Source of the DNA: Candidatus Parcubacteria bacterium
GTDB lineage: Bacteria > Patescibacteriota > Minisyncoccia > Phycocordibacterales > UBA9973
DNA: 59,996 nt
Reading direction: 5' to 3'
Assembly: GCA_039795715.1 (NCBI GenBank)
Contig: JBDKLD010000008.1
Coordinates: 1 to 59,996 of the forward strand
The notes under the pieces are model-generated. The model was not told the origin of the DNA. It was given only the letters and a program-made list of their open reading frames with translations, and searched no databases. Position 1 is the first letter of the stretch. Every line of letters begins with the position of its first letter. Shown one piece after another: positions 3,787 to 24,050 of the stretch. The position numbers and the translations under genes are program-made.

Positions 3787-4542
3787 ATGAACTATCTAAT
3801 AAAAATTATCCCACACCCACTCAAGCTACTTATTGCCAACACACGAGCATACGTGCTTTTTCTGAAACAGTATCGTCATTTTATAAAACTATCAAAAAAG
3901 GGACACAGGTTTAGGGTTAGCTGGAGTGAACGAAATCCTCAGCTTCATGATAACTCCCGAGACACAGGTTTTGATCCCCATTACACATACCATCCAGCTT
4001 GGGCTGCTAGAATTCTCGCAAAAACAAAACCAGCACGACACGTAGATATTTCATCAATACTAAGTTTTTCAACAATAGTTTCAGCATTTGTGCCGACAGA
4101 TTTTTACGACTATCGACCTGCACACATTACACTGAGTGATCTTATCAGCAGAAAAGCCGATCTTACCGCACTCCAATTCTCAGATAATAGTATTGAATCA
4201 CTTTCCTGCATGCACACCATTGAACATATTGGGTTGGGCAGGTATGGTGACACAATCGATCCTGACGGCGACATAAAGGCTATGTCAGAACTTTCGCGAG
4301 TGATTGCGCGCGGCGGCAACTTGCTTTTTGTTACACCTATCGGGAAACCTAGAATTCAATTCAACGCTCACCGTATTTATTCATACAGGCAGATCATTGA
4401 TTATTTTCCAGATCTGAAATTAAAGGAATTTTCCCTTCTGGCGGACGACGGGGGTGGAGACGGCCTGATCATTAATGCATCCGAAACACAAGCAGACTCG
4501 CAAGAGTATGGCTGCGGATGTTTTTGGTTTACAAAAGTATAA
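3787..4542 (+). CDS. Methyltransferase-like protein (DUF268-type, GLGRYGD motif)
   Basis: SCMHTIEHIGLGRYGDTIDPDGD and RGGNLLFVTPIG resemble the DUF268/class I methyltransferase family as I recall it. ATG at 3787 follows the previous stop. Confidence 0.5.
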   Translation: MNYLIKIIPHPLKLLIANTRAYVLFLKQYRHFIKLSKKGHRFRVSWSERNPQLHDNSRDTGFDPHYTYHPAWAARILAKTKPARHVDISSILSFSTIVSAFVPTDFYDYRPAHITLSDLISRKADLTALQFSDNSIESLSCMHTIEHIGLGRYGDTIDPDGDIKAMSELSRVIARGGNLLFVTPIGKPRIQFNAHRIYSYRQIIDYFPDLKLKEFSLLADDGGGDGLIINASETQADSQEYGCGCFWFTKV

Positions 4543-4543
4543 T

Positions 4544-5350
4544 ATGGAAAAAGTATCAGTCATCATACCTACATGGAACAGCGCAAGTACTCTCATTGCT
4601 ACTATTAAAAGTTGCCTCAATCAGACTACTCCACCGTTTGAAATCCTTGTTTGTGATGATGGCTCTACCGACAATAGCGAGGGGGCTGTTAGAGTAATTG
4701 GCGATTCGCGTGTAATTTGGGCTCCTGGTGAACATTCCGGCACACCAGCAATACCAAGAAATAGAGGCATAGCTATGGCTAAGGGTGAATGGATTGCTTT
4801 TTGTGATAGTGACGACGAGTGGTTACCGACAAAACTTGAAAAGCAGCTGGTGTTGGCTAACAACCTAGACTACAAAGCATCGTGTACTGTTGCTTTAGTT
4901 AAAATCGATGGAATAATAACAAAAGAGGTTGTTAGTAGTTGGAAGAAAAATACATTTACTTTTTGTAATGCACTACACAGCAATGATATTGTCGGCAGTT
5001 CAGTCCTGATGCACTCATCAATTGTCAAAGAAATTGGCGAATTTACTCCTATTATTGAAAATGCTAGCTTTGCTGATTATATGTATTGGTTACGAGCAAT
5101 GACAAAAACAAATTTTGCCTATGTATGTGAACCACTTGTTATTTATGATGACCACCCAAAAACAAGCTTGCGTGCAACAAGTCTCTCAGATGAAGCATTG
5201 CAGAAAGTAGTATTTGCAGATTTCACTGATTGGGCAAGAAATCACCTTGGCAATCAAGCACCTGCTTTCATTCTAAAAATTGGTAAATATAAGGCAAGAG
5301 AAAGTGTGCGCAAAATTGTTTCAAAAATATGGCACGTATGGAAAAAGTAA
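4544..5350 (+). CDS. Glycosyltransferase family 2
   Basis: VSVIIPTWNSASTLIATIKSCLNQTTPPFEILVCDDGSTDNS, plus the DXD-like AFCDSDDEW. ATG at 4544 is 2 nt after the previous stop. Confidence 0.8.
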   Translation: MEKVSVIIPTWNSASTLIATIKSCLNQTTPPFEILVCDDGSTDNSEGAVRVIGDSRVIWAPGEHSGTPAIPRNRGIAMAKGEWIAFCDSDDEWLPTKLEKQLVLANNLDYKASCTVALVKIDGIITKEVVSSWKKNTFTFCNALHSNDIVGSSVLMHSSIVKEIGEFTPIIENASFADYMYWLRAMTKTNFAYVCEPLVIYDDHPKTSLRATSLSDEALQKVVFADFTDWARNHLGNQAPAFILKIGKYKARESVRKIVSKIWHVWKK

Positions 5351-6960
5351 AAATCGGCATCCTCTATATTTGCACCGGCAACTACACTGTTTTCTGGAAG
5401 GACTTTTATGAGAGCATGGAAAAGTATTTTGCGACTGACGCTGAAAAACATTACTTTGTCTTTACCGATGCCGATCACATAGAGCACGGGGTAGATGCGG
5501 CTGGAAACAAGAATCCGTATATTCATCGCATCTACCAGAAAAACCTTGGTTGGCCAGGCAATACGCTCAAGCGTTTTCACATGTTTCTTGGCATCGAAGA
5601 GGAGCTAGCAAAGCTCGATTACCTCTTTTTTTGCAATGCCAACTTACAAGTTCTTCAAACAATTTCTGCCTCCGATGTTTTACCAACTGGAGAAGAAAAG
5701 CTTGTTGCGACACTTCACCCAGGTTTTTATGCAAAACCACGTAGGAAATTTACTTACGAAAAAAATAGGAAGTCGATAGCATACATAAACAAAAGCGAAG
5801 GCGAACGCTACTTCGCTGGTGGTTTCAATGGCGGTACAAGTTCAGCTTTTATCTCTGCAACGAAAAAGATGCGAGAGCAAATTGATGCTGATGAGAAGAA
5901 TGGCGTAGTCGCTCGCTGGCATGATGAATCACATTGGAATAGATATTTGGTCAGTCGCACAGATGTAAAAGTCCTCTCTCCTGCTTTTCTCTATCCAGAA
6001 GGCTGGTCCCTACCTTTTACTCAAATTATTCTTGTACGAGACAAGAAAAAGCTTGGTGGCCACAATACAATGCGCAACAGCAAAAACTCGCTAAAGGATG
6101 TAGTAATAACATGGGCAAAAACGTTCATTAAAAACCTTATCTTGCTTGCGAAGCCGACCTCAAATACGACACATTTCATTCAGAAAAAATCACTTTTCTC
6201 GACACTTGACCAACACGAGCTAAACAGAAAAAACCTGATATGTATAACAATTGCTTTCAACAAAAGTACTGTAATTGAAGCGCAATGGAAGCAATTATCA
6301 GAGAACATTTCTGAGTCTTTCACCTACATAGTTGCTGACAATTCAAATGATGCAACTGTGAGTGCCGAGATACAGAATTACTGCGCTCAAAATTATATTT
6401 CATACGTTAAAATTCCAAATAATCCATTCGAGAAAAACCCAAGTCGCTCACATGGCATTGCGCTCAATTGGGCCTATGAACATATTGTAAAAAAGTACCG
6501 GCCAACGTATTTTGGTTTTATCGATCATGACATTTTGCCATTTAGGAAAACAGCAGTAACCGACAAAGTTCAAAATGGTATTTTTGGCCTCGCGCAGAAG
6601 CGTAACGAAAAATGGTACTTGTGGCCAGGATTTTCTTTTTTTAAGACATGTGAGGTAATAGAAAAACCACTAGATTTTTTACCATGCGACGGACTCGATA
6701 CTGGTGGCTCAAACTATGATGTGCTATACAAAAATATTGATCAGGCAACTCTTTCACAACTCCCACAGTACTATTTTGATATTGAAAAGAGAGTAAAGTT
6801 GCCAGCTTTTGATCACGCCAACCAAAACATAGTTGAAACTATTGGTGACTGGGTACACCTTATGAGAACTTCCAACTGGCATGGCTTGTCGCCAGAAAAA
6901 TCAAATAGTACTAAGAGTATCGAAGCTGCAGTAAAAACAATTCAAGAAATCGCATTATAG
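5329..6960 (+). CDS. Two-domain glycosyltransferase: N-terminal GT6 (ABO/alpha-1,3-Gal(NAc)-transferase-like, NXN type) fused to a C-terminal GT-A/GT2-like domain
   Basis: The N-terminal ~250 aa align by eye with human GTA/GTB blocks: HYFVFTD, LDYLFFCNANLQV (NAN in place of DVD), LVATLHPGFY, FTYEKNRKSIAYINKSEGERYFAGGFNGG, ARWHDESHWNRYL, KVLSPAFLYP. The C-terminal ~240 aa have ICITIAFNKS...YIVADNSND and FIDHDILPF (DXD-like). Confidence 0.85.
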   Translation: MARMEKVKIGILYICTGNYTVFWKDFYESMEKYFATDAEKHYFVFTDADHIEHGVDAAGNKNPYIHRIYQKNLGWPGNTLKRFHMFLGIEEELAKLDYLFFCNANLQVLQTISASDVLPTGEEKLVATLHPGFYAKPRRKFTYEKNRKSIAYINKSEGERYFAGGFNGGTSSAFISATKKMREQIDADEKNGVVARWHDESHWNRYLVSRTDVKVLSPAFLYPEGWSLPFTQIILVRDKKKLGGHNTMRNSKNSLKDVVITWAKTFIKNLILLAKPTSNTTHFIQKKSLFSTLDQHELNRKNLICITIAFNKSTVIEAQWKQLSENISESFTYIVADNSNDATVSAEIQNYCAQNYISYVKIPNNPFEKNPSRSHGIALNWAYEHIVKKYRPTYFGFIDHDILPFRKTAVTDKVQNGIFGLAQKRNEKWYLWPGFSFFKTCEVIEKPLDFLPCDGLDTGGSNYDVLYKNIDQATLSQLPQYYFDIEKRVKLPAFDHANQNIVETIGDWVHLMRTSNWHGLSPEKSNSTKSIEAAVKTIQEIAL

Positions 6961-6997: not shown

Positions 6998-7870
6998 CTA
7001 CCACCTCTCCTTGTACACGCGAACCAAATAGTACCAAAGTTTTTTCGGCATTATTTTTTCTATTACAGCAAAGACCGAATACAGACCAACACGTAGCATT
7101 GCCTGAAAATAACCGATGGCAAACCCTGGATAATCATCGCGGTAGTTTTTGAGCATATTCAAAATTCTTCGTAGCTGTACAATCTTGTTTTTTCCGCTGA
7201 GACTTTCCTTTCGAACCATAAGTGTCACTGCGTAGAGCGAGATGTTGGCAAGTGTTCCCTCTTTGCCCATACGCAACCAAAAATCGTAGTCTTCTACGTG
7301 TCGCAAATCTTGCGACTCTTCATAGCCTCCGAGCTTGACCGCAATATCTCTACGGAACATTACCGAAGAATGAATAAAGCAATTTTTCCTATGCAGTGTA
7401 TTTCTTATTTCTCTGTCAGTCGCAGGAAGTAAGTAGCGCATTGTTTCTTGACCACTTTCATTTACCAAAATCGCTCCCGTACCAACAAGCACACAACTCT
7501 GCTCTTTTTCAAAAATACCGACTTGCATTTCAAGCTTGGCAATATCATTCCACGTATCGTCATCATCAAGTCTCGCGATGTAATCGCCTTTCGCCATGCT
7601 TATACCTCGGTTAAGTGATTTCTGAATGCCAAGGTTTGCCTCATTTTTGATATATATAATTCTCGAGTCATGAGTAGAAAAATTCACCACAATTCCCTTT
7701 GTGTCATCGGTAGAACCATCATCGACGATGATGAGTTCCCAGTTTGTGTAGGTCTGCGCTAATATACTTTCAATTGCAGACAGAATACGCGCCGAACCAT
7801 TATATGTCGGCATAATAATACTTACTAACGATTTTTCTGTAGTTACATTCATGTCTATATTCGTATCCAT
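6998..7870 (-). CDS. Glycosyltransferase family 2
   Basis: VSIIMPTYNGSARILSAIESILAQTYTNWELIIVDDGSTDDT and ARLDDDD (DXD). Confidence 0.85.
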   Translation of the reverse strand: MDTNIDMNVTTEKSLVSIIMPTYNGSARILSAIESILAQTYTNWELIIVDDGSTDDTKGIVVNFSTHDSRIIYIKNEANLGIQKSLNRGISMAKGDYIARLDDDDTWNDIAKLEMQVGIFEKEQSCVLVGTGAILVNESGQETMRYLLPATDREIRNTLHRKNCFIHSSVMFRRDIAVKLGGYEESQDLRHVEDYDFWLRMGKEGTLANISLYAVTLMVRKESLSGKNKIVQLRRILNMLKNYRDDYPGFAIGYFQAMLRVGLYSVFAVIEKIMPKKLWYYLVRVYKERW

Positions 7871-8730
7871 GTTGGAGGCGTAAGCGTACTTGTGTCTATA
7901 CTCTCGTCAGTAAACCAACGTTTTGGTGCTATGACTATTTTATCAGTATATGGGGCAAGCCATGCTGACCACCAAGAAAATGAGCTATTGGCAATAATGA
8001 AATGCTTGCACTGACTCATGAGATACATATGCTCTTCATTTTTTTTACCCGCATATTCTTGTCCGACATACACCACATTGTCCCCAAATAGCATGTGATC
8101 CCTGCACCATGCAATATCATCTGAAAATACATACATGGTTTCTATTGTAGTTTTTTGTTTGAGTAAATTAATCGCCGAGCCATAGTATTCTTTACCGACA
8201 GTTTCGTGGTGTACATTACCAACAAAGTCACCTCGTCTCACATGTACGCAGACTGCATTTTTTGATTGTATCTCTTTGGCAAGTTCCTGTGTTTTTTCAC
8301 TTACCTTTTCTTTTAGTCTAAAATCGTTGCGAATAACTTCTTCGTACTCAAAAAAATATTTGTAACTTTGCCAAAAACCACTCAAGTACGTATTGTTAGA
8401 GAGCTCAAGAATCGTAGCGTCAAAAGCAAATTTTTTTTCTACGCCATTTTTCTTTTGTAATTTACCAATAGTAATGTCAAATAATCTTGCCAAGAAAGGG
8501 CTGCGCAAACGATAGATAAAAGGGATTTCAGAAGGCTTCGCTATTCTTCCTGTAATACCAAAGACATCGAGATCAAAATGTCGAATAGTATCATTGTTAT
8601 ATGCAGGCTTCTTGCCGAGAGTGCTCGTATCAAGGCCGAGTTCAGTTGTATGTTTCAATGACAACACTCTTCCCACCGCATACTGAAACATTTGGTTCCC
8701 CAAGCCACCTGATAAACGTGTAATAATCAT
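7855..8730 (-). CDS. Alpha-1,2-fucosyltransferase (GT11, FutC-like)
   Basis: MIITRLSGGLGNQMFQYAVGR at the N-terminus, HVRRGDF (HxRRGD motif) and ANSSFSWWSAWL are the three GT11 motifs. Start taken at ATG 8730; the ORF track extends to 8751. Confidence 0.85.
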   Translation of the reverse strand: MIITRLSGGLGNQMFQYAVGRVLSLKHTTELGLDTSTLGKKPAYNNDTIRHFDLDVFGITGRIAKPSEIPFIYRLRSPFLARLFDITIGKLQKKNGVEKKFAFDATILELSNNTYLSGFWQSYKYFFEYEEVIRNDFRLKEKVSEKTQELAKEIQSKNAVCVHVRRGDFVGNVHHETVGKEYYGSAINLLKQKTTIETMYVFSDDIAWCRDHMLFGDNVVYVGQEYAGKKNEEHMYLMSQCKHFIIANSSFSWWSAWLAPYTDKIVIAPKRWFTDESIDTSTLTPPTWIRI

Positions 8731-8744
8731 ACTGCCTTTGTATA

Positions 8745-9632
8745 TTACCAATTGAGCTCAATTTCGGGAACTTTGCCACTTTCTGTGATGTATTTTACAA
8801 TGTCGAGGTATTTATCCTGCTGACTTGGGTCAAGAAGAGCCAGTCGCTTGAGTATGACGACGAGGTGTGAACTGTCTTTCTTTTTATAGAAATAGGTAAA
8901 CATTTTTTTGTAGGCTGCACGAGTTAAATTCACATCTTGATTAAAGTTACTTGAAAGTGCAGCTTCCAGGTGTTCTAGTGCGCGCGGCATGTACTCAGGC
9001 ATGTATTTATCATTTTCATATACCAAAAACTGTCCAAGAAAATACTGGATCTTGGGCGCATGCGGATCAACTGCGAGCGCTTTCTTGTAAAGGTCTATTG
9101 CCTCTTGATGTTTGTTTTGATTGTAGAGGTTTAGCCCATAGCTCTCTATTAATTTCTGATAACTGGGGAACAAATTGAGCGCTTCTCTGTAATAATGCTC
9201 AGCGTCGGCAAGATATTCCTGCTTCTTCGCTGGATCACTTTCATTAATTGCCAAGGTGTCATAAGTATAACTAATATAAATATAGCTATTGATATACGGC
9301 GTTGTAGTTAGCAAACTTTCCTTGATTTTATCGAGCGTAAATGGAATGAGTTTTGGCGCGATTTCCCTCTCTCCAGTATTGAATGTAGAGACCATAAACG
9401 CCAAGAAAACGTACCGGAGCATGGGCTGAACATGAGTATACGGAGTAAAAAGCGAAGCATCTTTGGTGACGACGGTATAGTCATAAGTATCGATAGCTTT
9501 TTGATAGGCTTTGTGGAGCCTAATAATCTGACTGTTCGGCACAAGCGTCCATGCAACAAAGGCTATGCCGAAAAAGAGCGTCGCGACAATAAGAGAGATT
9601 TTTATGACGATGTAGTTGTTAGACTCTTTCAT
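8745..9632 (-). CDS. Membrane-anchored TPR-repeat protein
   Basis: N-terminal TM helix (IVIKISLIVATLFFGIAFVAW) followed by TPR-like A-x-x-Y-Y-x-x-A-L-x-x-x-P repeats (AEHYYREALNLFP, AIDLYKKALAVDP). Confidence 0.6.
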   Translation of the reverse strand: MKESNNYIVIKISLIVATLFFGIAFVAWTLVPNSQIIRLHKAYQKAIDTYDYTVVTKDASLFTPYTHVQPMLRYVFLAFMVSTFNTGEREIAPKLIPFTLDKIKESLLTTTPYINSYIYISYTYDTLAINESDPAKKQEYLADAEHYYREALNLFPSYQKLIESYGLNLYNQNKHQEAIDLYKKALAVDPHAPKIQYFLGQFLVYENDKYMPEYMPRALEHLEAALSSNFNQDVNLTRAAYKKMFTYFYKKKDSSHLVVILKRLALLDPSQQDKYLDIVKYITESGKVPEIELNW

Positions 9633-11748: not shown

Positions 11749-14700
11749 TTAGTTTACACGCATAGTTTGTGTATCTGTAGGAAGATTCTTTACTAACAAA
11801 GCATTGTTCCAGTCAAGTGTTGTAGCATCATGACTTACAGCTGATGTATCAGTCCAGATAAATGTAGCCTGGGCTGAGTTAGCAGCAGCAACCGTAGCAT
11901 AAGCAACAGGAGCTGCGTATGTATCAGGTTGAGCAATACTTACGTTAATATTATCATTAACAGTTGGTGTGAACGCTGTTGTGAGCTTCAACACATATGT
12001 CTTCGTACCACTGATTTGTTGCTCATTTGTCGCAACAAATGTGATTCCGCCAGCAGTATCGCTGTCAGTTTCTACTGATCCTGTGAAGGCAGCAGTACCG
12101 GCGATTTGTGTGTTGGTATCGTAATCCCACAATGTAGGCGAAGCAAGAGTATCTGTACCAGACATCGCACGAGTTACAGTAAAGATAATCTTCTTCCATC
12201 CAATAGTTCCACCCTGTGAAGCGACAGTGAACTTAGCAGCAGTTACAGTTCCTGTGCTGAGTATTGCTGTAGGGAGAGCAACGTTTGTAATTACAGGAAT
12301 TGCTCCGTAAACATACATCGCGTTACCAGCAGCACCACTTATAGTACCTGCAGCAGTAACACCAGTTGCTAGTGAACTTGCTGTAAAGGCAGTAAGGGTA
12401 GTGAGTAATGAAGCTCCTGATGTACCAGCGCCAATACCTACTGTACCCAAAGTGAGTTTAACAGTGAGGATCTTGCTAGTGTTAGCAGGAATATCCCAGT
12501 TAAGATCGTAGAAGTTTACAGTTGCTGCACCCGCAAGTGATGCGACCATAGTAGCACCATCATAAAGCGCGACACTAGATACGTTTGTAGCATCTGCAAT
12601 TGTAAATGTTAGATCTTTAACTTTGTAGCCAGCAGTAACCGCTTGGAACTTCAACGCTGAAGTAGTTATAGTTTGATTGTCATAGACAATACCTGTAACT
12701 GGAGCAGAAGCATCCAAAGAGGCAGTTATTGAAGCTGCGCTACTAATAATAGTTTGGCCAGCAATTGTAGTGGCAGCATCACCAGAAAAGACAGATTGTC
12801 CACTAGTCATTGATGTACCAGTTACCTTAAGAGCAATTCTAAATGAATCACTCGTAGCAACCGCAAAAGAAGCGCCTGCAGCATTCAAGCCATTATCTGC
12901 AAGATTTGCAAACATTTCAATTGTAAGGTTCTGATTCTTTGGCAATGTGTAGCCGATATTGAAGCTATTGCCTGTAGCTGTAACTGTAGGGAGAGGAGTT
13001 GTCTGAGCAACTACTGTGCCAGCACTATTCTTTACTACCGCGTATACATTTTTAAGATCACCAAATTCAAAAGTTGTATTTGTGACCGTTGGGACTGCAA
13101 ATGTAAGCGTATTCAAGTTAATATCTTCAATCGAACTACCCGAAAGATTGTATGAAGCAATCTTAAATGCTGTCGATGGAAGTACTGTTGACTGGTTTGC
13201 GTAAGTCGCATTCTTTGCCAAAGTTATTGATGTTGTCGCAATTGTAAGCTGGTTTGCTGAAACATCAGATGATGGTGCATTGAATGAACCAAGAGAGTCC
13301 GTTCGCTGTGCATTTGATGAACCAGTAATAATCTTTGCAAGGATAGTGTCAGAAGCATCAAGTGCCATACCTGACTGAAGACCATCATTGTCATAGATAT
13401 CAGCATGTAATTCAACCATTATTGGAGTACCTGGCATAACAGTGTAATTGACTGTGAACGTTGTTCCAGCTGGAACAAGAGTTGCATTTGAGCCATATTG
13501 ACTTCCGTTAATCAAGATACGGCCGTTACGGAGAGTAACTGCAGTATTGTTTGTTGAGCCAAGTGATCCATCAAATGTACCGCCTGCAATAAGTGTCTCG
13601 ATTTTGATCGGTTCACCGTATGCAGTTACCTTGAAGGTTCCGAGATTTACATCGGTACCTGCCAAAGTAAGGTTAGTTGAAGGCGATGAAACATCCTTTT
13701 CAATCGTAAGTGTTCCACCTGTAGCACCAGAAATAGTACTTGCAGATGATGGAGCCCAAGGAGTTGAAGTAGGAGTAATGTTTACACCAAAGCTTGAGTC
13801 AACAAAGTCTACGTCTGCTGCCTGACGAAGTGAAAGTTGTACTGTGCGTGAAGCACCAGATACAATGTCAGCTTCAACACGGACAACACGTGAGCCAGAA
13901 ACAAGCATGACTGGAGCAGAACTCATGTCAAAGGTTACATAACCCATTGAATCCATTCCTGCTGCTGAACCAACTTGTGTGCCATTTACGTAAAGCTTGA
14001 AGTTCTGGAAAGCACTAGCTGAAGCTGATCCAACGTTGCGAAGAGCGAGTCTCTTCATCCACACATCTCGGTTTGAGATAGTGAGTGTATCTTGCCAGAG
14101 AGTAACAGCTGACCCAGGATTGAGTGTTGCACCACTTGGAGTCGCACCCAAGTGAGTGACTGACGCAAGTGTTGCTGAAGCAATAGTATGAATATTGCCT
14201 GAGATCATTGGGCTAGTAGTACCAGAAGCAGTTGCAAATGACTTGAGCATTACGCCAACTGTTTGGCCTGATGTTAAAGTAAGAATATCAGATTTAACTT
14301 TGATATTCCTCATGCCACTGACAGTGAAAAGACCAGCAGGGACATTGAAAGAAACCATACCGTTGTTTGATACTGAAGCAGCATCAGTCAAGCGAGTAGC
14401 CCCATCAAAGAGGTACACATTTGAAAGAGTTGCATCAGCAGAAACACCGATACGCTGGAGAGTAATGTTAGTTACTGTACCAGTACCAGAGAAGGTGAAG
14501 TGAGCGAGGTCTGCTGTTGCTTGTGCAGCAACGAGCGTGCCAGCAGCTGGGTTGTCAGTAGACAACATAGCGCTAACTGGACCAGTCTGAGTGTTTGGTG
14601 GAGGAGTTGTAGAACCTGTTCCGCAACCCATAGCATTCATCTTTGCACGGCCAGCTGGACCAAAGACGCCGTCTGCTGTGAGACCCATCTTTCCCTGCCA

Positions 14701-14964
14701 AACCTTGACTGCTGCCTTGGTCTTGCTGCCAAACGAAGTTGATTCGTAGCCAGCTGAACCGACACCAGTAGATGAAACCATAGTATCAGCGCACATGTTA
14801 AGAGCTTTTTGGAGCTCCATAACAGCCATGCCCTTTGAACCCTGTTTAAGAGTTGGAGCAGCGAATGTGTATGCGCTTGCAACGCCAGCGCTTGTGAAAG
14901 CGAAGGCGAATGCCGCCAAACCCAAGACCACTTTCGCGGAGTTAGATTTTAGAAATTTAGACAT
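11749..14964 (-). CDS. Secreted peptidoglycan-binding, Thr/Ser/Ala-rich repetitive surface protein (S-layer-like candidate)
   Basis: Signal peptide (VLGLAAFAFAFTSAGVASA). PG_binding_1-like module (LKQGSKGMAVMELQKALN...TKAAVKVWQGKMGLTADGVFGPAGRAKM). TTPPPNTQTG linker. About 900 aa of degenerate ~100-aa beta-strand-pattern repeats with no Cys. Confidence 0.7.
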   Translation of the reverse strand: MSKFLKSNSAKVVLGLAAFAFAFTSAGVASAYTFAAPTLKQGSKGMAVMELQKALNMCADTMVSSTGVGSAGYESTSFGSKTKAAVKVWQGKMGLTADGVFGPAGRAKMNAMGCGTGSTTPPPNTQTGPVSAMLSTDNPAAGTLVAAQATADLAHFTFSGTGTVTNITLQRIGVSADATLSNVYLFDGATRLTDAASVSNNGMVSFNVPAGLFTVSGMRNIKVKSDILTLTSGQTVGVMLKSFATASGTTSPMISGNIHTIASATLASVTHLGATPSGATLNPGSAVTLWQDTLTISNRDVWMKRLALRNVGSASASAFQNFKLYVNGTQVGSAAGMDSMGYVTFDMSSAPVMLVSGSRVVRVEADIVSGASRTVQLSLRQAADVDFVDSSFGVNITPTSTPWAPSSASTISGATGGTLTIEKDVSSPSTNLTLAGTDVNLGTFKVTAYGEPIKIETLIAGGTFDGSLGSTNNTAVTLRNGRILINGSQYGSNATLVPAGTTFTVNYTVMPGTPIMVELHADIYDNDGLQSGMALDASDTILAKIITGSSNAQRTDSLGSFNAPSSDVSANQLTIATTSITLAKNATYANQSTVLPSTAFKIASYNLSGSSIEDINLNTLTFAVPTVTNTTFEFGDLKNVYAVVKNSAGTVVAQTTPLPTVTATGNSFNIGYTLPKNQNLTIEMFANLADNGLNAAGASFAVATSDSFRIALKVTGTSMTSGQSVFSGDAATTIAGQTIISSAASITASLDASAPVTGIVYDNQTITTSALKFQAVTAGYKVKDLTFTIADATNVSSVALYDGATMVASLAGAATVNFYDLNWDIPANTSKILTVKLTLGTVGIGAGTSGASLLTTLTAFTASSLATGVTAAGTISGAAGNAMYVYGAIPVITNVALPTAILSTGTVTAAKFTVASQGGTIGWKKIIFTVTRAMSGTDTLASPTLWDYDTNTQIAGTAAFTGSVETDSDTAGGITFVATNEQQISGTKTYVLKLTTAFTPTVNDNINVSIAQPDTYAAPVAYATVAAANSAQATFIWTDTSAVSHDATTLDWNNALLVKNLPTDTQTMRVN

Positions 14965-15601
14965 AATATATTTATAATTTGATGCACGTTATATGAATTT
15001 CGACGTGCTCTCTAAATTTATTTTAGATAAGAGCAAGATTCACAGTATGCATTTTTGTATCCGGAATGGATACGATGAATTATTTTTTTTGAGAACAATT
15101 CAAAACTCGAAACCAGATGCACATAACAAAACAATGGATGCTATACACAAATGATATCTGCCTTGTCGACAGGGCCGATAAAAGCCCGATCAGAAATACA
15201 AAAAACAAAAAGATTGACAACTCTTCGGTATCAAGTTTCGCCAACCTATGTATTTGTCAATGATCGAACCGTTGCTTAACGCGGACACAACAATCGCTAA
15301 ATAAATAGCTACGGAATCCTATCTTCCGATCGTGCCTTGCGTTAAAGGGCATATTATCACGAAACGGCAAATGCCGCTAGTAATATGCTTCCGATAATTA
15401 TACGACTTATACCGTAGATAACAATAATGCTACCTGTGGATTTAGCCTTACAAAATCGGCTTTTTGCCGTAATGGGTAAAAGCATGACTCAATCAAAATG
15501 CCCAATTGCGTGCACTAATGATGACGGGGCATTTCAGTGCGAATGACACTAAAAACAATAAGATACAGATGGAGAAAATGTCAAACGAAACGTTTACTCG
15601 A

Positions 15602-16444
15602 CTACTTTATCTTATACATACTCCATCGTCGCTCCCCGACCCTTTCAATTTTTCCTTCATCTATTAGTGACTGTAGATCTCGTTGGATGGTCTTAAAGGA
15701 CACATCGGGGAACTCAGCTTTGACTTCGGCAATTGTGCTAGATTCTTTTCCGACAAGAGCCTTTATTATCTTGGTCTTTCTATCATCAAAAGTTGTGGAT
15801 TTGTCTTTTATAAAATTCTTGGTGCCGAATGTTGGAGCAATAGATTTATTAAGGACATTTATTACTAATTGTTCATGTCCTTTATCTTGAATGTCCTTTA
15901 TATGTCCTTTATCACTAGGAGCATCATTGTGCACTGTCCTCAAAGGCTTTTCTGTTTTTTCCACAGGCTCATTCCGCAAAATACTTTCAATATCTATAAG
16001 GCCACCGCGACGTGATTCGTAGCTACCGCCAAGTGCCATAAGTTCAAGCCTCAAAATTCTAAAGTTCATCTCAGAGACAAGAAAAAGTGTCACGCCGACT
16101 TCGAGGTAAGCAATAATTTTCTTGATGATATTATTTATTTCGTTTGAGCGACGATCATAGTTTTCTCCCCTAGTTCCAGCAATGTCATTGGCAACCGAGA
16201 GGAGAGCGAGGCCTGCCTTGCGAATCTCCTTCTGGAGCGGCTCATCTGATGGCAAAATATTGGAAACAAGATAGAGCGCAGTCGTGATATTGCCCGCACG
16301 CTTGGCAGACTGCGACAACGACTTATCCATGGTTTCCAATGCATCCTTTACATGTCCCTTAGAAAGTCCAGTGTCTTTTATGTGATTGTCCTTTTGATTT
16401 TCCATATTGATGAGTATGTCTCTTATGTCTTTTATTATAACCAT
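15602..16444 (-). CDS. Hypothetical DNA-binding protein with C-terminal winged-HTH (DeoR-like) domain
   Basis: C-terminus STIAEVKAEFPDVSFKTIQRDLQSLIDEGKIERVGERRWSMYKIK looks like a DeoR-type wHTH. The N-terminal and central parts carry repeated KGH[IV]KD motifs and a helical region. Confidence 0.5.
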   Translation of the reverse strand: MVIIKDIRDILINMENQKDNHIKDTGLSKGHVKDALETMDKSLSQSAKRAGNITTALYLVSNILPSDEPLQKEIRKAGLALLSVANDIAGTRGENYDRRSNEINNIIKKIIAYLEVGVTLFLVSEMNFRILRLELMALGGSYESRRGGLIDIESILRNEPVEKTEKPLRTVHNDAPSDKGHIKDIQDKGHEQLVINVLNKSIAPTFGTKNFIKDKSTTFDDRKTKIIKALVGKESSTIAEVKAEFPDVSFKTIQRDLQSLIDEGKIERVGERRWSMYKIK

Positions 16445-16469
16445 CAGACATTTGTAAGCAAGCTCGGAG

Positions 16470-16590
16470 CATTTTAAAAATAAATATTACCAATCGAGGC
16501 ATTTTCGGAGCGCGACGGCGCGAGAAGAAGGCGCTTTTTCAGCAGAAAAAGACGCCGGTGACGAGAGGGGTAATATTTCTTTTTAAAATG
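16470..16590. repeat. Copy 1 of a structured GC-rich repeat element (81-nt core 16490-16570 closed by a 22-bp AT-rich helix)
   Basis: The core is 80/81 identical to 20420-20500. The flank cattttaaaaataaatattacc (16470-16491) pairs with ggtaatatttctttttaaaatg (16569-16590) with one mismatch. Confidence 0.8.
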
Positions 16591-16659
16591 CCCGCGAGGG
16601 AACTGCTATTTATACTCCGAGCTTGTGTTACAATGTTTTCATCATCTTATATTTAAACA

Positions 16660-18843
16660 ATGCCCAAAAAACCACCAGAGAAAGAAAAAAAGCAAAATGG
16701 TAAAAAGAAAGTCGCTGACCTACAAGAGAAAGGCTTGAAGCATGAAACCAAGCAGACCATTTACGCCATTGTTGCGTTTTTCCTCGCAATCTTTTTTGCC
16801 ATTGCCGCATTTGGGGGAGGCGGTGTCGCAGGTAGCGGTGTCTATGGCTTACTAAAGAAACTCTTTGGCGTTGGCTACATTTTCCTACCACTCAGCGCGG
16901 CACTACTCGGTATATCACTCATCGGCGAATACAGAGCAAGAGTCTCTAGTTCACACCTCGTCGCCTCACTGATTTTCCTTTTCTCTGCACTTTCAATAAT
17001 AGACATCGCTTCTGTTGCGCACGCTGGTGGCATGGTCGGCAAATTTGTCGCTTGGCCATTTATTAGGCTCTTTGATAAAAGCCTTGCAATACTACTTTTT
17101 GGCGCACTAGTTATTATTGCTCTCCTCATGCTTTTTGATGCCAAACCTGCGCTCGTTCCATTTTTCAAAAAACTTTGGGCACTCATCACTGGCAAGAAAG
17201 AAGTCGTGGCGAGCGCGACAATCACCTCTGCTGAAGAAAAGAAAATCGACGCAATCGCCAATGCCGAAATTGCCCGCGTCGAACATACAGAAAGAAAAGA
17301 CGAACCGCAACAAGAAGAACCAAAGAAAAAGAAAACCGATGATGAAATGGCTGGTTTCCAAATCGCTAGTATTCGCCGTGCGAGTGCGTACACACCACCA
17401 CCGCTTTCACTCCTCGAAGGCGATCGAGGCAAAGCGAACGTCGGCGACATCAAAGGCAATGCCAACATCATCAAGCGTACGCTAGCAAACTTTGGCATCC
17501 AAGTTGAAATGGATGAAATAACTGTCGGGCCATCTGTCACTCGCTACGCACTCAAACCAGCCGAAGGCGTCAAGCTCGCTCGCATTGTTGGTCTGCAAAA
17601 TGACCTCGCACTTGCGCTTGCTGCACATCCGATTCGCATCGAAGCGCCAATTCCAGGGAAGTCACTCGTCGGTGTCGAAATCCCAAACAAAACCAAGTCG
17701 ACTGTTGGCCTCGCCTCACTCCTCGAAGACAGCGAATATAAAAATTCTGAGAAGCCACTCTTTATGGGTGTTGGTCGTGGACTTTCTGGTCGCGCCAAAT
17801 TCATAAACCTAGCCAAGATGCCACACATGCTCATCGCTGGTACAACTGGCGCCGGCAAGTCAGTAACTATCCACACACTCATTACATCGCTCCTGTATCG
17901 TCTCGGGCCTGAAGATTTGCGATTTATCATGATCGACCCAAAGCGTGTTGAGCTCACGCTCTATAACAAAATCCCGCACTTGCTCACGCCTGTCATCACT
18001 GACGCCAAGAAAGCCATACTCTCGCTCAAATGGGCAGCAAAAGAAATGGAGCGTCGCTACAACATTCTCGAAACCGAAGCTGTGCGCGATATTGATTCGT
18101 ATCACAAACTCATCGGCAATAGAAAGCCAAAAGACGGGGAAGAAGTAGACCGCATGCCATTCATCGTCATTATTTTGGATGAGTTGGCAGATATTATGTC
18201 GTCGTACCCAAGAGAACTTGAAGCTGGCATCGTTCGTCTCGCGCAAATGTCTCGCGCTGTTGGTATTCACCTTATACTTTCTACTCAGCGCCCAGAAGTG
18301 AACGTCATCACCGGTCTCATCAAAGCCAATGTTCCGGCTCGCGTAGCGCTCAAAGTTTCTTCGCAAATAGACTCACGAACAATTCTCGATACTGGTGGTG
18401 CAGAGAAATTGCTCGGTGCTGGTGACATGCTTTTCATCTCAGGCGAATCTTCACAGCCAGAACGTATTCAGTCAGCATTTATTACCGAAGATGAAGTAAA
18501 ACGTGTCGCGGCTTGGCTCGGCAAGACATATGAGAATGAAGTTATTGGCGACATTGCGCTCACAGGTACGCCAAGTGTCGACAAGTCTATATTTGAAGCA
18601 ACACTAGATTCTGAGGACAATGCCGATGATGATGAAATGTATGAATCAGCAAAACAAGCTGTTATGGAGGCTGGTAAAGCCTCGACTTCGTACCTCCAGC
18701 GCAAACTCAAGCTCGGCTACGCTCGCGCAGCACGTCTCATGGATATACTTGAAGAACGTGGTGTTGTTGGCCCAGCAGATGGCGCAAAGCCTCGCGAAGT
18801 TTTGATAAAAAATGATATGGAAAATCCTGAGCTCGGCGCGTAA
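16660..18843 (+). CDS. ftsK: DNA translocase FtsK/SpoIIIE
   Basis: N-terminal TM segments. Motor domain with Walker A GTTGAGKS, Walker B IVIILDELADIM and HLILSTQRP. C-terminal gamma wHTH (TSYLQRKLKLGYARAARLMDILEERGVVG). Confidence 0.92.
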   Translation: MPKKPPEKEKKQNGKKKVADLQEKGLKHETKQTIYAIVAFFLAIFFAIAAFGGGGVAGSGVYGLLKKLFGVGYIFLPLSAALLGISLIGEYRARVSSSHLVASLIFLFSALSIIDIASVAHAGGMVGKFVAWPFIRLFDKSLAILLFGALVIIALLMLFDAKPALVPFFKKLWALITGKKEVVASATITSAEEKKIDAIANAEIARVEHTERKDEPQQEEPKKKKTDDEMAGFQIASIRRASAYTPPPLSLLEGDRGKANVGDIKGNANIIKRTLANFGIQVEMDEITVGPSVTRYALKPAEGVKLARIVGLQNDLALALAAHPIRIEAPIPGKSLVGVEIPNKTKSTVGLASLLEDSEYKNSEKPLFMGVGRGLSGRAKFINLAKMPHMLIAGTTGAGKSVTIHTLITSLLYRLGPEDLRFIMIDPKRVELTLYNKIPHLLTPVITDAKKAILSLKWAAKEMERRYNILETEAVRDIDSYHKLIGNRKPKDGEEVDRMPFIVIILDELADIMSSYPRELEAGIVRLAQMSRAVGIHLILSTQRPEVNVITGLIKANVPARVALKVSSQIDSRTILDTGGAEKLLGAGDMLFISGESSQPERIQSAFITEDEVKRVAAWLGKTYENEVIGDIALTGTPSVDKSIFEATLDSEDNADDDEMYESAKQAVMEAGKASTSYLQRKLKLGYARAARLMDILEERGVVGPADGAKPREVLIKNDMENPELGA

Positions 18844-18849
18844 ACGTAT

Positions 18850-19206
18850 ATGATGATTGACCCGAAAAAATTTATCCGGTTTGCCTTGATTGGTTTACTT
18901 TTTCTCGGCATTACGGTATACGGGTACTATCGGAGCAAGGACGCTATTTTTGGCATTGCTATCACAACTTCTATCCAAGACGGTGCTGTTCTTGACTCAA
19001 AACTGCTTACTCTCACTGGCAGTGCGCCACATACATCGAAGTTTACGGTCAACAACAGGGAGATTCTGCTCGACAAAAATGGTGACTTTGCCGATACATT
19101 GCTCCTCCAAGACGGCTATAATATACTTACCCTAGAAGCGAGCGACAAATTCGGTAGGACGATACAAAAGGTAATCCGACTGTATACCAAGCCTGCTGTT
19201 GTCTAG
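18850..19206 (+). CDS. Hypothetical membrane-anchored protein (small beta-sandwich ectodomain)
   Basis: One TM helix (FIRFALIGLLFLGITVYGYY) and a beta-rich C-terminus. No recognisable motif. Confidence 0.4.
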   Translation: MMIDPKKFIRFALIGLLFLGITVYGYYRSKDAIFGIAITTSIQDGAVLDSKLLTLTGSAPHTSKFTVNNREILLDKNGDFADTLLLQDGYNILTLEASDKFGRTIQKVIRLYTKPAVV

Positions 19207-19294
19207 TTTTATTTTTAACATTTCTTTATCAGTATTTCATGTGCGAGGTATACAATACTTGCATGTCATTTAGTAATTAATTCCAAAACATTTT

Positions 19295-20389
19295 ATGGCA
19301 AAAAAAGCTACGAAAGCACCAAAAGAGCAGGGGGGAGCAGTTGATGACGCAATCAAGTCAATCCTGACAAAGTTCGGCGAAGGTTCGATCATGAAGCTTG
19401 GCGATGCGCCGAAAGTTAACGTCAGCGCCATACCAACAGGCTCTATTGGTCTCGACATTGCACTTGGCATCGGCGGTTTGCCACGCGGACGTATCATCGA
19501 AATTTTCGGTCCTGAGTCATCGGGCAAAACCACACTCGCGCTCCACGTCGTCGCCGAAGCCCAAAAGCTTGGCGGTATTTGCGCGTACATTGATGCTGAA
19601 CACGCAATGGATCCAGAATATGCACAAAACCTCGGTGTAAATATTGCCGAGCTACTTATTTCTCAACCAGACACAGGTGAGCAAGGTCTCGAAATTGTCG
19701 AGTCGCTTGTTCGCACCGGCAAGATTGACGTCATTGTCATTGATTCTGTCGCAGCACTCACTCCAAAAGATGAAATAGAAGGTGATATGGGTCAGCAACA
19801 CATGGGCAAGCAAGCACGTCTCATGTCGCAGGCACTTCGCAAGCTCACCGCGCTCGTCGCACGCTCAAACACAATAGTTATTTTCATCAACCAGATCCGC
19901 ATGCAGATCGGCGTCATGTTCGGCAATCCAGAAACAACTCCAGGTGGCAAGGCACTCAAGTTCTACACTTCTGTCCGTCTCGATATTCGTCGCATCGCGC
20001 AGATTAAAAAAGGTGAAGAAGTCGTCGGCTCGCGCACTCGCGTCAAAGTTGTCAAAAACAAAGTCGCTGCACCATTCAAGCAAACCGAATTCGATATTAT
20101 TTACGGCGAAGGTATTTCACTCGAAGGTGAAATCATGGCACTCGGTGAGAAGCTCGGCATTATCGAGAAAAGTGGGGCTTCATACACCTACGTTCCACCA
20201 GCCGGAGAAAAAAGTGAGAAAGGTGAAAAGGCCGACAAAGCCGAGAAACAGCCCGACAAGATTCCGCTCGCACGCGGATACGACGCCACTCGCCAAGCTC
20301 TCCGCGAAAACCCAAAACTCCGCGACCAAATTCTCAAGGTCATCCGCAAGCGAATGAAAGAAGTTGTTTCCGAATCAAGCGGCGAATAG
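19295..20389 (+). CDS. recA: Recombinase RecA
   Basis: [13 protein letters not shown] (Walker A), [38 protein letters not shown]. Full length, with a Lys/Glu-rich insert near the C-terminus. Confidence 0.97.
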
Positions 20390-20406
20390 CAGACTATTCG
20401 AGCGAA

Positions 20407-20513
20407 GGAATAAAAATAGCCAATCGAGTCATTTTCGGAGCGCGACGGCGCGAGAAGAAGGCGCTTTTTCAGCAGAAAAAGACGCCGGTGACGAGAGGGG
20501 CTATTTTTATTCC
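20407..20513. repeat. Copy 2 of the structured GC-rich repeat element (core 20420-20500 closed by a perfect 15-bp helix)
   Basis: ggaataaaaatagcc (20407-20421) pairs perfectly with ggctatttttattcc (20499-20513). Starts 18 nt after the recA stop. Confidence 0.8.
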
Positions 20514-20523
20514 TGCGCACAAT

Positions 20524-20551
20524 TTGACAGAGCTATTTTTTTGTGTATAAT
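20524..20551 (+). promoter_or_regulatory. Sigma70-type promoter for the 20580 gene
   Basis: TTGACA (20524-20529), 16-nt spacer, TATAAT (20546-20551); 28 nt upstream of ATG 20580. Confidence 0.5.
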
Positions 20552-20579
20552 AATAGTAAACGTACTAAAAAATACAATA

Positions 20580-21188
20580 ATGAAAATAGCAAAAAAAGAT
20601 TGGAATACGCTCACAACTTCCCTACCTGGTAAATTTCAAAGCTACAAAAATCCTTCTCGCTTGAGAATGATTCGTGTTAAAAAACTGGCTTTAAAACTTC
20701 GTGAAATAATCAATTTGTGTAATGACCCAGATCTCATCAAGAGACTGTTATCTGGCCCTTGTATATTCTTGGAAAGACCTGTTATTCGCCACCAAGACAG
20801 TGTCGAATTCAACTTTGCCGAAAAATGCACGATAGCTGAAGGGCTTCGGAAAAAATCACCTGATGTTCTATACAAAATGTATAGAAACAATAAGCTTAAG
20901 GTACAACATCTTGTTGAAGCAATAAATGCTGTAAACTGGTATATCAGAACTGGCCGACCAATTACCAAAGATGTCCTTGCGAGCAAGCTTGTACTTGAAA
21001 AAGTACTCAATATTTCTAATCTCGATCATCTTCGCATCTACGAAGCACTCAAGTATGAGGACAAGATGGCCATCGTTAAAAAAGCCGAGAAATACCTCAT
21101 TGCAGTACTTACTATGTGTATTGAGCATGAAACAAAACAAGTTGCGCTCAATAAAAAAATGATTGTCGAGGAAGAAGTTTTTGCTTAG
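20580..21188 (+). CDS. Hypothetical protein (202 aa)
   Basis: ATG 20580 follows a consensus promoter. The ORF-track N-terminal extension from 20364 reads through the repeat element and was discarded. No recognisable motif. Confidence 0.5.
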   Translation: MKIAKKDWNTLTTSLPGKFQSYKNPSRLRMIRVKKLALKLREIINLCNDPDLIKRLLSGPCIFLERPVIRHQDSVEFNFAEKCTIAEGLRKKSPDVLYKMYRNNKLKVQHLVEAINAVNWYIRTGRPITKDVLASKLVLEKVLNISNLDHLRIYEALKYEDKMAIVKKAEKYLIAVLTMCIEHETKQVALNKKMIVEEEVFA

Positions 21189-21205
21189 GCCAAAACAAAG
21201 AATAC

Positions 21206-21231
21206 GCACCCAAATACTGGGTGCTTTTTTT
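21206..21231 (+). terminator. Rho-independent terminator
   Basis: GCACCC-aaatact-GGGTGC followed by ttttttt. Confidence 0.7.
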
Positions 21232-21233
21232 AT

Positions 21234-21262
21234 TTGCCTTTTTCCACCTGCTTGGCTATAAT
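21234..21262 (+). promoter_or_regulatory. Promoter of efp (probable leaderless transcript)
   Basis: TTGCCT (21234-21239), 17-nt spacer, TATAAT (21257-21262), then only 7 nt to ATG 21270. Confidence 0.45.
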
Positions 21263-21269
21263 CGTTGGC

Positions 21270-21848: not shown

Positions 21849-21860
21849 ATTTAGCAAAAT

Positions 21861-21890
21861 AAAAAACCCAGCATTTGCTGGGATTTATTT
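21861..21890. terminator. Bidirectional terminator between convergent efp and the 21906 gene
   Basis: aaaaaaCCCAGCatttGCTGGGatttatttt. Confidence 0.65.
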
Positions 21891-21905
21891 TAACTAGTTA
21901 TTTTT

Positions 21906-24044: not shown

Positions 24045-24050
24045 TTGGTT

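Follow-up and report, generated by a model that had tools for sequence, protein, structure and literature searches.

The question raised by this locus is what a glycosyltransferase with two catalytic domains, only the first of which belongs to a named family, might be doing among the surface-glycan genes of a bacterium of the Candidate Phyla Radiation (CPR). The DNA analysed here, referred to as the window, is the stretch of 59,996 nucleotides at positions 1 to 59,996 of contig JBDKLD010000008.1 (assembly GCA_039795715.1), from a metagenome-assembled genome (MAG) labelled at NCBI as 'Candidatus Parcubacteria bacterium'. The same contig encodes RecA, FtsK, MetRS, ArgRS and IleRS, and the gene in question is thus physically linked to housekeeping genes; a preliminary description of the window had taken it for a CPR-like genome, in agreement with the NCBI label. 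The gene is a single continuous open reading frame (ORF) of 543 aa at positions 5329..6960 of the plus strand, with no internal stops, and corresponds to NCBI entry MEN9582153.1 ('hypothetical protein', RL641_107), which begins at Met4 and holds 540 aa; both candidate starts, Met1 and Met4, overlap the 3′ end of the GT2 gene upstream. It had been described as a bacterial NXN-type GT6 (ABO-like) glycosyltransferase fused to a second GT-A domain, and all the motifs quoted for the first half (HYFVFTD, LHPGFY, FTYE..AYI..GGFNGG, WHDESHWNRYL and KVLSP) and for the second (ICITIAFNKS, ADNSND and FIDHDI) are found in its translation. According to our analysis, the product is very probably a bifunctional enzyme with two active sites, working in a pathway for H/A-like glycans.

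The GT6 half and its active site

In regard to the N-terminal half, Pfam family PF03414 (GT6) matches aa 3-248 with 132.6 bits (cutoff 25, E=1.7e-38), and the NCBIfam model NF041524 matches aa 8-239 with 293.7 bits (cutoff 250). The closest solved relative is BoGT6a of Bacteroides ovatus (4ayj, E=1.2e-73 over aa 8-250), followed by the human blood-group transferases GTA and GTB (E=1.2e-33 for GTA). In the full-length AlphaFold2 (AF2) model, blocks of the GT6 domain have a predicted local distance difference test score (pLDDT) of 84-98. The BoGT6a numbering was rebuilt from the alignment and then checked against the residues named in the structure papers; 23 of the 25 tabulated positions are identical in the window protein, I228 is conservatively replaced by V236, and the sole non-conserved position, E132, which is a crystal contact, is Lys. 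Judged by its sequence, this half genuinely belongs to the bacterial NXN clade. The features concerned are the following, all on the plus strand and with BoGT6a equivalents taken from the alignment:

5329..6960, plus strand: two-domain glycosyltransferase, complete ORF of 543 aa (NCBI start Met4 at nt 5338)
5350..6075, plus strand: GT6 catalytic domain, aa 8-249, of the bacterial NXN / BoGT6a-like clade (PF03414, NF041524, BoGT6a)
5635..5643, plus strand: N103-A-N105, equivalent to BoGT6a N95-A-N97 and GTA D211-V-D213
5722-5724, plus strand: Gly132, equivalent to GTA position 235
5815..5823, plus strand: A163-G-G165, donor-sugar pocket, equivalent to BoGT6a A155-G-G157 and GTA 266-268
5917..5928, plus strand: W197-H198-D199-E200, equivalent to BoGT6a W189-H-D-E192, with E200 corresponding to GTA E303
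6034..6075, plus strand: GT6 C-terminal lid, with V236, R237-D-K239 and R249
Further equivalences (BoGT6a first): I8, T10 and Y13 with I14, T16 and Y19; N69, T70 and R73 with N78, T79 and R82; H122, G124, K128 and T134 with H130, G132, K136 and T142; Y153 with Y161; I228 with V236 (fucose-accommodating position A7); R229 and K231 with R237 and K239; R243 with R249 (conserved, read from the alignment)

The structural studies of BoGT6a assign roles to many of these positions. Its W189-H-D-E192 stretch provides the acceptor-stacking Trp, the sugar-binding His and Asp and the catalytic Glu192 (PMC3516806). Asn95 binds ribose and phosphate and contacts N2′ of N-acetylgalactosamine (GalNAc), Lys231 and Arg243 bind the diphosphate in place of the metal, and His122, Gly124 and a residue of small size at 228 make room for the acceptor's 2′-fucose (PMC3516806, PMC3961637). 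The replacement of DXD by N-A-N, which the preliminary description had placed at nt 5635-5643 and likened to that of the metal-independent BoGT6a, is encoded by the codons AAT GCC AAC (aa 103-105) and aligns with N95-A-N97 of BoGT6a and the D-V-D of human GTA. Since NAN takes the place of DVD, metal independence is predicted for the window enzyme, which also has the basic lid residues of the BoGT6a type (K239 and R249).

The same holds for the donor-specificity residues, where alignment with BoGT6a and human GTA/GTB bears out what had been claimed: ERYFAGGFNGG puts Ala163 on Leu266 and Gly165 on Gly268 of GTA, and the three equivalents of GTA 235/266/268 are Gly132/Ala163/Gly165, exactly as in the GalNAc-transferase BoGT6a, in keeping with an A-type donor. 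Met at 266 is what excludes GalNAc among the donor determinants of GT6 enzymes (PMC4202792). The residues accommodating fucose are also kept (H130, G132 and V236, corresponding to BoGT6a H122, G124 and I228). From these residues and from the adjacent GT11 gene described below we infer UDP-GalNAc specificity and the use of an H-type acceptor, and the GT6 domain is accordingly predicted to transfer GalNAc in alpha-1,3 linkage onto Fuc-alpha1,2-Gal, as a retaining enzyme that needs no metal.

The C-terminal domain, the linker and the recurrence of the fusion

The extension, put at ~290 aa in the preliminary description, measures ~293 aa, and the second glycosyltransferase-like domain recognised there folds in our models as a GT-A domain. 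Its features, together with the linker that precedes it, are the following:

6085..6153, plus strand: inter-domain linker helix resembling a basic-hydrophobic-basic (BHB) segment, NSLKDVVITWAKTFIKNLILLAK, aa ~253-275 (hydrophobicity, AF2)
6226..6957, plus strand: second GT-A domain of an unnamed family, aa ~300-543 (AF2, Foldseek, hhalign, homologues)
6337..6345, plus strand: D337-N338-S339 (VADNS), at the end of beta-2, aligned with the GT2 'DDGS' nucleotide-binding motif
6451-6453, plus strand: H375, invariant His in the alignment of 108 homologues
6523..6531, plus strand: D399-H400-D401, DXD motif after beta-4 (E394-399), aligned with the GT2 DXD, presumed metal/diphosphate site
6697..6699, plus strand: D457 in GLDTGG, invariant in the alignment, candidate catalytic residue by inferred role
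6856..6858, plus strand: H510 (GDWVHLMR), invariant in the alignment, candidate third metal ligand, likewise by inferred role

No significant Pfam or NCBIfam match was obtained for aa 251-543. Against PF00535 (GT2), the C-terminal half reached 12.0-12.4 bits (cutoff 23.3, E=0.15-0.2), thus missing the family threshold, and only 11 of 108 relatives of the domain match this family at E<=0.01, weakly. It has 326 homologues at E<=1e-3, most of them standalone proteins of 250-310 aa annotated as 'hypothetical' and devoid of Pfam domains. In the alignment of 108 homologues, N338, S339, H375, D399, D401, F450, D457 and H510 (full-length numbering) are invariant, D337 is conserved in at least 90%, and the motifs AFN, SxSHGxxLNW, GFxDHDxxP, WYLWPGF and LDTGG are nearly so. 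With this alignment, AF2 models the domain with a pLDDT of 93.6, a predicted template modelling score (pTM) of 0.89 and the strand and helix order of GT-A enzymes, D-N-S standing after beta-2 and D-H-D immediately after beta-4.

The relationship of this fold to known families is distant. Foldseek against the PDB returned only GT-A enzymes (E~5e-5, template modelling (TM) score <=0.38), namely B3GalT5 (GT31), BoGT6a (GT6, in second rank), TarP and SpsA (GT2) and GnT-I (GT13), and the profile of the 108 homologues found nothing significant among PDB sequences (best E=0.6, spurious). Compared by hhalign with an alignment of GT2, the family scored 88.5% (E=2.7e-6), the match covering the nucleotide-binding half only (domain aa 49-165), with VADNS paired to IVDDGS and IDHD to LDDD; the acceptor half has no detectable GT2 similarity. 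The rank of BoGT6a among the Foldseek matches raised the possibility of a diverged GT6 duplicate, which was rejected, as hhalign gave 0.3% for GT6 and 1% for a GT11 control. The contrast between 88.5% for GT2 and 0.3% for GT6 settles that the domain is no GT6 duplication and comes from a GT2-related family that has no name, and we read it as a GT-A transferase with an intact active site that probably needs a metal. N-terminal halves of the PF00535 type occur in inverting as well as retaining GT-A families, and so does a site made of DXD and a distal His.

The segment joining the two domains, NSLKDVVITWAKTFIKNLILLAK, exceeds every other window of the protein in hydrophobicity, with a Kyte-Doolittle value of 1.09 and a hydrophobic moment of 0.45. 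This hydrophobicity is too low for a transmembrane helix, and the segment is more probably a peripheral membrane anchor, as far as its composition tells. In bacterial GT6 homologues of one domain, similar tails come after 'GGHxxLR', and tails of the BoGT6a type are BHB membrane-association segments typical of the NXN clade (PMC3516806). On sequence grounds, aa 253-275 may just as well stem from the helix with which the C-terminal family begins; in the GT6-GT2 fusion P0133, no BHB-like segment is found and GT6 runs straight into the GT2 domain. The full-length AF2 model has a mean pLDDT of 93.0, a pTM of 0.61 and a pLDDT of 59-81 over the linker (aa 250-300), within which a helix is placed at aa 255-274. 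High pLDDT, low pTM and a linker of low pLDDT together indicate, at the level of the model, two rigid domains on a flexible tether, and the protein is likely a peripheral membrane enzyme offering two active sites to a lipid-linked glycan.

The fusion recurs well beyond the window. The identical product of 543 aa is present, with the same neighbours, on two JGI contigs and in one Logan assembly, and no fewer than 15 further proteins or loci, belonging to several phyla, have homologous fusions with 36-65% identity. The best matches to the C-terminal query include fusions bearing PF03414 (P0002-P0006 and P0022), and an exhaustive phmmer search of 1.84 billion representatives added further two-domain matches (P0132, P0135 and P0136). 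A scan of GTDB, at one genome per species and with the profile of the C-terminal family, yielded 262 relatives, and all locus counts given here refer to the best 80 of these 262. Eight of the 80 loci carry the same fusion: two of Nomurabacteria, one each of Patescibacteria, Paceibacterota and Saccharibacteria, two Gammaproteobacteria MAGs and one unclassified bacterium; a GT6 fusion has stood in GenBank since a 2015-era Nomurabacteria MAG (L006). The fusions fall into a CPR class with NAN / AGG / WHDE / [IV]RDK and a class of Gammaproteobacteria and others with D[AV]D / CGG. Catalytic residues of the C-terminal domain are kept across all fusions examined, with a single DQD variant. Identities to the window protein, calculated for the GT6 half and for the C-terminal half, co-vary (r=0.93, n=15), which is compatible with a single old fusion or with two whose halves were then inherited together.

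Several side observations concern the same searches. At L007, in a Patescibacteria MAG (JAZKCM010000003.1), the homologous fusion has its GT6 part spread over two overlapping frames, 9250-9519 and 9443-10828, and the NCBI product is 'partial'; this suggests a frameshift, whether through a sequencing error or in a pseudogene. Mesorhizobium spp. (L033-L085) commonly carry distant members of the C-terminal family, with neither GT6 nor GT11 nearby, and some of their stop-to-stop ORFs reach 600-730 aa, the extension being devoid of Pfam domains. Rhodoplanes spp. (L065, L066 and L074) hold two divergently oriented paralogues ~200-350 bp apart. By tblastn, the C-terminal domain matched one Mesorhizobium 'hypothetical protein' among annotated plasmids, and among phages the full protein matched by its GT6 half only, in cyanophages such as P-SSM2, with no fusion.

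The gene cluster and the proposed pathway

The contig begins inside a glycan cluster, at the Wzt-like gene, and the cluster is made up of the following genes in addition to the fusion:

158-1441, plus strand: Wzt-like ABC ATPase (weak Wzt_C match, E=5.6e-4)
1329-2222, plus strand: TylF-like methyltransferase (domain match)
2224-2922, plus strand: S-adenosylmethionine methyltransferase, Methyltransf_25 (domain match)
2904-3779, plus strand: GT2 (domain match)
3715-4542, plus strand: DUF268 protein, methyltransferase-like (domain match)
4475..5350, plus strand: GT2 immediately upstream, its 3′ end overlapping the start of the fusion (PF00535, E=7e-28; syntenic in L001, L002 and L005)
6998..7870, minus strand: GT2 between the fusion and GT11 (PF00535, E=1.3e-38; same position in L001 and L002-L004)
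7855..8751, minus strand: GT11, alpha-1,2-fucosyltransferase family, with the motif HVRRGDF (PF01531, E=2.1e-34; syntenic in L002, L005 and L007-L010)
8745-9632, minus strand: TPR protein (domain match)
9619-10917, minus strand: Wzy_C / O-antigen-ligase-like membrane protein (domain match)
10919-11674, minus strand: TPR protein (domain match)
11749-14964, minus strand: PG_binding_1 protein of 1071 aa, the domain being N-terminal (domain match)

The gene order GT2, fusion, GT2, GT11 is syntenic across loci, and the GT11 gene is presumed, from its family, to make the Fuc-alpha1,2-Gal acceptor for the GT6 domain. In the syntenic locus L002, which encodes P0005, Bac_transf, Wzm, Wzt and a methyltransferase lie upstream, three genes of the GDP-mannose-dehydratase/epimerase family, a putative GDP-fucose pathway, stand beside GT11, and Wzy_C followed by PG_binding_1 (14085..17494) is again found downstream. 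The locus of P0022 also holds GT2, the fusion and GT11.

The association extends to members of the C-terminal family that are not fused. The closest 40 loci include 8 fusions, 6 loci with a separate GT6 within 10 kb and 23 with GT11 within 10 kb, while the next 40, mostly from Mesorhizobium and Paludibacteraceae, hold no fusion, one separate GT6 and two GT11. Where the C-terminal family (CT) and GT6 are separate genes, their order varies: GT6->CT->GT11 in L017 (a Parcubacteria MAG), CT->GT6->GT11 in L019 (a Neisseriaceae MAG) and GT11-CT-GT6 in L045 (a Lachnospiraceae MAG). Other fusions combine the modules differently, as in [GT6-GT2]+[GT2-CT]+GT11, [GT2-CT] with GT11 nearby, CT+[GT6-GT2] and [GT2-GT11]+CT+GT6, and other GT6 fusions in metagenomic data comprise GT6-GT2, GT2-GT6, GT11-GT6 and GT6-methyltransferase. 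Such recurrent fusion and adjacency, the so-called Rosetta-stone pattern, is the chief argument for placing the C-terminal family in one pathway with GT11 and GT6. GT6 domains are in fact abundant and often multidomain in metagenomic protein space, so that the rarity of GT6 in bacteria asserted in the preliminary description was overstated. Examples of multidomain GT6 or GT2-CT proteins are L011, L012, L022, L034 and L035 as well as P0133, P0137, P0140-P0142 and P0159, and one protein of 1191 aa combines GT2 with two GT6 matches; none of the other GT6-fusion or GT2-CT architectures was found in the literature searched.

Some features of the cluster can be noted in their own right. The weak Wzt_C domain and the three methyltransferase-like genes resemble the methyl-cap control of chain length in ABC-transporter-dependent pathways. 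The Wzy_C protein is flanked by two TPR proteins, and its PG_binding_1 neighbour is conserved in the related CPR locus L002, an arrangement that may hint at the place of glycan attachment in the CPR envelope. The guanine-cytosine content of the glycan cluster (1-12 kb) is 0.37-0.41, compared to 0.42-0.47 in the remainder of the contig (0.44-0.47 at 16000..32000), and a lower content of this kind is often seen where surface-polysaccharide loci are horizontally mobile. No non-coding features of the window were revealed by Rfam and tRNA scans.

On this basis, the window protein would be a peripherally membrane-associated enzyme of a cell-surface glycan pathway that operates at the cytoplasmic face and depends on an ABC transporter. 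A phosphoglycosyl transferase, whose gene would lie off-contig as judged from L002, would start the lipid-linked glycan. The GT2 enzymes and the C-terminal domain would then extend it at the cytoplasmic face, one of them installing beta-Gal, after which GT11 would add alpha-1,2-Fuc, as expected at the level of its family. The GT6 domain would transfer alpha-1,3-GalNAc from UDP-GalNAc without a metal, as its residues predict, and the product would be a blood-group-A-like epitope with GalNAc on the Gal of Fuc-alpha1,2-Gal. Finally, if O-antigen and S-layer glycan pathways that depend on ABC transporters are taken as a model, the chain may be capped by methyltransferases, exported by Wzm/Wzt and ligated to an acceptor by the Wzy_C protein. 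The C-terminal domain would perform another step on the same lipid-linked glycan, the amphipathic BHB-like linker holding both active sites at the membrane. Our best guess, offered tentatively, is that it acts before GT11, adding the sugar by which the Gal acceptor is formed or carried. Donor and acceptor identities, the order of action, the stereochemistry of the second domain and the final glycan are thus what we infer, while the identities of the domains, the conserved residues, the folds, the recurrence of the fusion and the coupling of gene neighbourhoods are what the analysis shows.

Several points weigh against this scheme. Both activities are predicted from sequence and models, and the C-terminal domain fits no curated family in the Pfam, NCBIfam and PDB sequence searches. 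Its distant structural matches mix inverting (GT2, GT13 and GT31) and retaining (GT6) enzymes, so that donor, acceptor and stereochemistry cannot be inferred from them. The small residue at the 266 equivalent allows GalNAc without excluding UDP-Gal. The three further GT2 genes of the cluster could equally supply the beta-Gal step. The enrichment of GT11 within 10 kb, 23 of 40 against 2 of 40 loci, is significant by Fisher's test (p=4e-7), but the loci are phylogenetically non-independent. Neither Wzm nor an initiating transferase nor a gene of GDP-fucose synthesis is found in the window, although they may lie off-contig, since the contig starts at wzt; UDP-sugar synthesis genes were likewise not found in the window search. 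Finally, CPR envelope glycans are barely characterised, and the final acceptor could be a lipid, a protein or a wall polymer.

Among the alternatives, the one that survives best reverses the order of steps: the C-terminal domain would act after the H-like disaccharide is made, decorating or extending Fuc-alpha1,2-Gal as GT6 does, or acting on the fucose or on the A-type GalNAc, and the fused enzyme would install two terminal sugars. The family is linked more often to GT11 (23/40) than to GT6 (14/40), and 11 loci have GT11 without GT6. In addition, a distal His together with DXD is a metal site common in retaining GT-A enzymes (GT8, GT27, GT78 and GT81), a pattern that the invariant H510 would match. 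Association with GT11 is, however, equally expected if the domain makes the acceptor for GT11, the structures do not discriminate (TM<=0.38 to all), and the only profile similarity is to GT2, which leaves this order rather unlikely.

The next alternative concerns the other active site, in that the GT6 domain could be of B-type, using UDP-Gal, or use another donor, and the product would then not be A-like. The small residues at 266/268 do permit both donors, and the donor-pocket residues of WbnI, a Gal-specific bacterial GT6, were not found in the literature text that was accessible. Against this, the Gly/Ala/Gly at 235/266/268 is exactly that of BoGT6a, and N103, whose BoGT6a equivalent contacts N2′ of GalNAc, is conserved, and we regard another donor as unlikely.

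A more radical scheme is that of a co-polymerase, in which the GT6 and C-terminal domains alternate to build a backbone of repeating disaccharides, the acceptor of GT6 being non-fucosylated, with GT11 and the methyltransferases serving only for decoration or capping. Bifunctional polymerases are known in ABC-transporter-dependent pathways, as are two-domain enzymes such as exostosins. Wzt-type export, with Wzm/Wzt in L002, the weak Wzt_C and several methyltransferases would be typical chain-terminating functions, two active sites intact by residue conservation are held on a flexible tether, and multidomain GT6 proteins with GT2 partners are common. Such a polymerase is nevertheless quite improbable: H130, G132 and the small V236, which form the 2′-fucose pocket separating GTA and BoGT6a from alpha3GalT, are kept, GT11 is tightly syntenic with the fusion, and neither BoGT6a nor PaGT6 shows activity on, or makes use of, unfucosylated N-acetyllactosamine (PMC3516806).

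An artefact in which chimeric assembly or a sequencing frameshift joined adjacent genes, the error once considered near nt 6080-6250, could draw on the three loci with separate adjacent genes (L017, L019 and L045) and on the split frame of L007, but it is effectively refuted by the continuous frame of the ORF, the identical product on the JGI and Logan contigs, the recurrence of the fusion in several phyla, and a linker conserved in character between halves that co-diverge.

Significance and known systems

The preferred reading, a bifunctional enzyme of an H/A-like glycan pathway, extends known biology, as bacterial NXN GT6 enzymes and two-domain glycosyltransferases are both already established. 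The GT6 half adds a new member to a known clade and the second domain belongs to an unnamed family, a result that specialists would hardly find surprising. Very little has been explored of the cell surfaces of CPR/Patescibacteria, and a well-conserved module of the A-antigen type in several of their lineages predicts, in a testable way, the surface epitope Fuc-alpha1,2-(GalNAc-alpha1,3)-Gal, which lectins or anti-A antibodies could probe. The C-terminal family is widespread, with 262 confirmed relatives in GTDB species genomes and hundreds of metagenomic clusters, and neither Pfam, NCBIfam nor structures provide an assignment for it. That it is linked to GT6 and GT11, fused or unfused, is a functional lead, possibly of use in the chemoenzymatic synthesis of blood-group glycans. 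The presence of the same fusion in DXD and NXN forms also bears on the origin of metal independence.

A broader proposal, which we consider doubtful, is that the C-terminal domain founds a new family whose closest subfamily partners alpha-1,2-fucosyltransferases, forming with GT11 and GT6 a portable 'ABH-antigen module' of three or four enzymes, shuffled by fusion across phyla. If this were true, Parcubacteria, Nomurabacteria, Paceibacterota and Saccharibacteria would display blood-group-A-like surface epitopes, possibly serving episymbiotic attachment or the evasion of immunity or phages, and the occurrence of the fusion in both the DXD and the NXN clade would mean that it is older than the switch to metal independence.

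Two other genes of the contig, outside the glycan cluster, may also be noted. The isoleucyl-tRNA synthetase at 35788..39288 (minus strand, 1166 aa) matches IleRS 8c8u as its best PDB relative (E=3e-214) in two stretches, and the insert at aa ~503-668 is a histidine-phosphatase domain (PF00300 His_Phos_1, E=3e-32; phosphoserine phosphatase 4ij5, E=1e-11); a phosphatase domain inside the catalytic body of an aminoacyl-tRNA synthetase is unusual. At 46042..47388 (plus strand), a ThyX (Thy1) homologue of 448 aa has its Pfam domain at aa 16-221 only, followed by an unassigned C-terminal extension of ~225 aa.

In ~25 Gram-negative species, which belong to four phyla, bacterial GT6 enzymes have been described, in each case consisting of a catalytic domain and a BHB tail (PMC3516806). 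For GT6 in Patescibacteria, nothing was found in the literature searched except one unrelated preprint, and the BoGT6a structure papers searched make no mention of multidomain or fused bacterial GT6. The nearest known enzyme is BoGT6a itself (4ayj/4ayl/4cj8), an alpha-1,3-GalNAc transferase of the blood-group A antigen, which aligns over the whole catalytic domain and shares with the window protein the N-A-N motif, the AGG pocket, WHDE, the lid with R-D-K and GGHxxxR, and, putatively, an amphipathic BHB-like segment after the catalytic domain; for both, a GT11 gene is expected as the upstream step. The two differ in that BoGT6a ends after its BHB tail and belongs to a gut Bacteroides, whereas the window protein continues into a second GT-A domain of ~245 aa and belongs to a CPR bacterium. 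Human GTA and GTB share the GT-A fold, a block-for-block alignment and the catalytic Glu (E303, equivalent to E200), and the residues at the equivalents of 235/266/268 are small, as in GTA. Unlike the human enzymes, which have DVD, the window protein has NAN, no N-terminal transmembrane/stem region and an additional catalytic-looking domain.

At the level of the gene cluster, the blood-group-B-like locus of E. coli O86 likewise unites GT2 enzymes, a GT11 alpha-1,2-fucosyltransferase and a GT6 (WbnI) in one surface-glycan cluster. Its members are reportedly WbnI, the GT11 fucosyltransferase, the GT2 beta-1,3-galactosyltransferase WbnJ, and WbnH, and its pathway is said to be Wzy-dependent. To our knowledge, the O86 enzymes are all single-domain, in contrast to the window cluster with its fused GT6 and its ABC export of the Wzm/Wzt type, and the additional GT-A family of the C-terminal domain is absent from O86. 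With SpsA and TarP (GT2 / PF00535), both among the Foldseek matches, the C-terminal domain shares the nucleotide-binding half; unlike GT2, its family carries the invariant motifs SxSHG, WYLWPGF, GLDTGG and WxH. Lastly, the multidomain GT6 proteins of metagenomes follow the same principle, the fusion of GT6 to a pathway partner, but in the window protein this partner is an unnamed family and not a canonical GT2, and the BHB-like linker, missing from P0133, appears to be kept.

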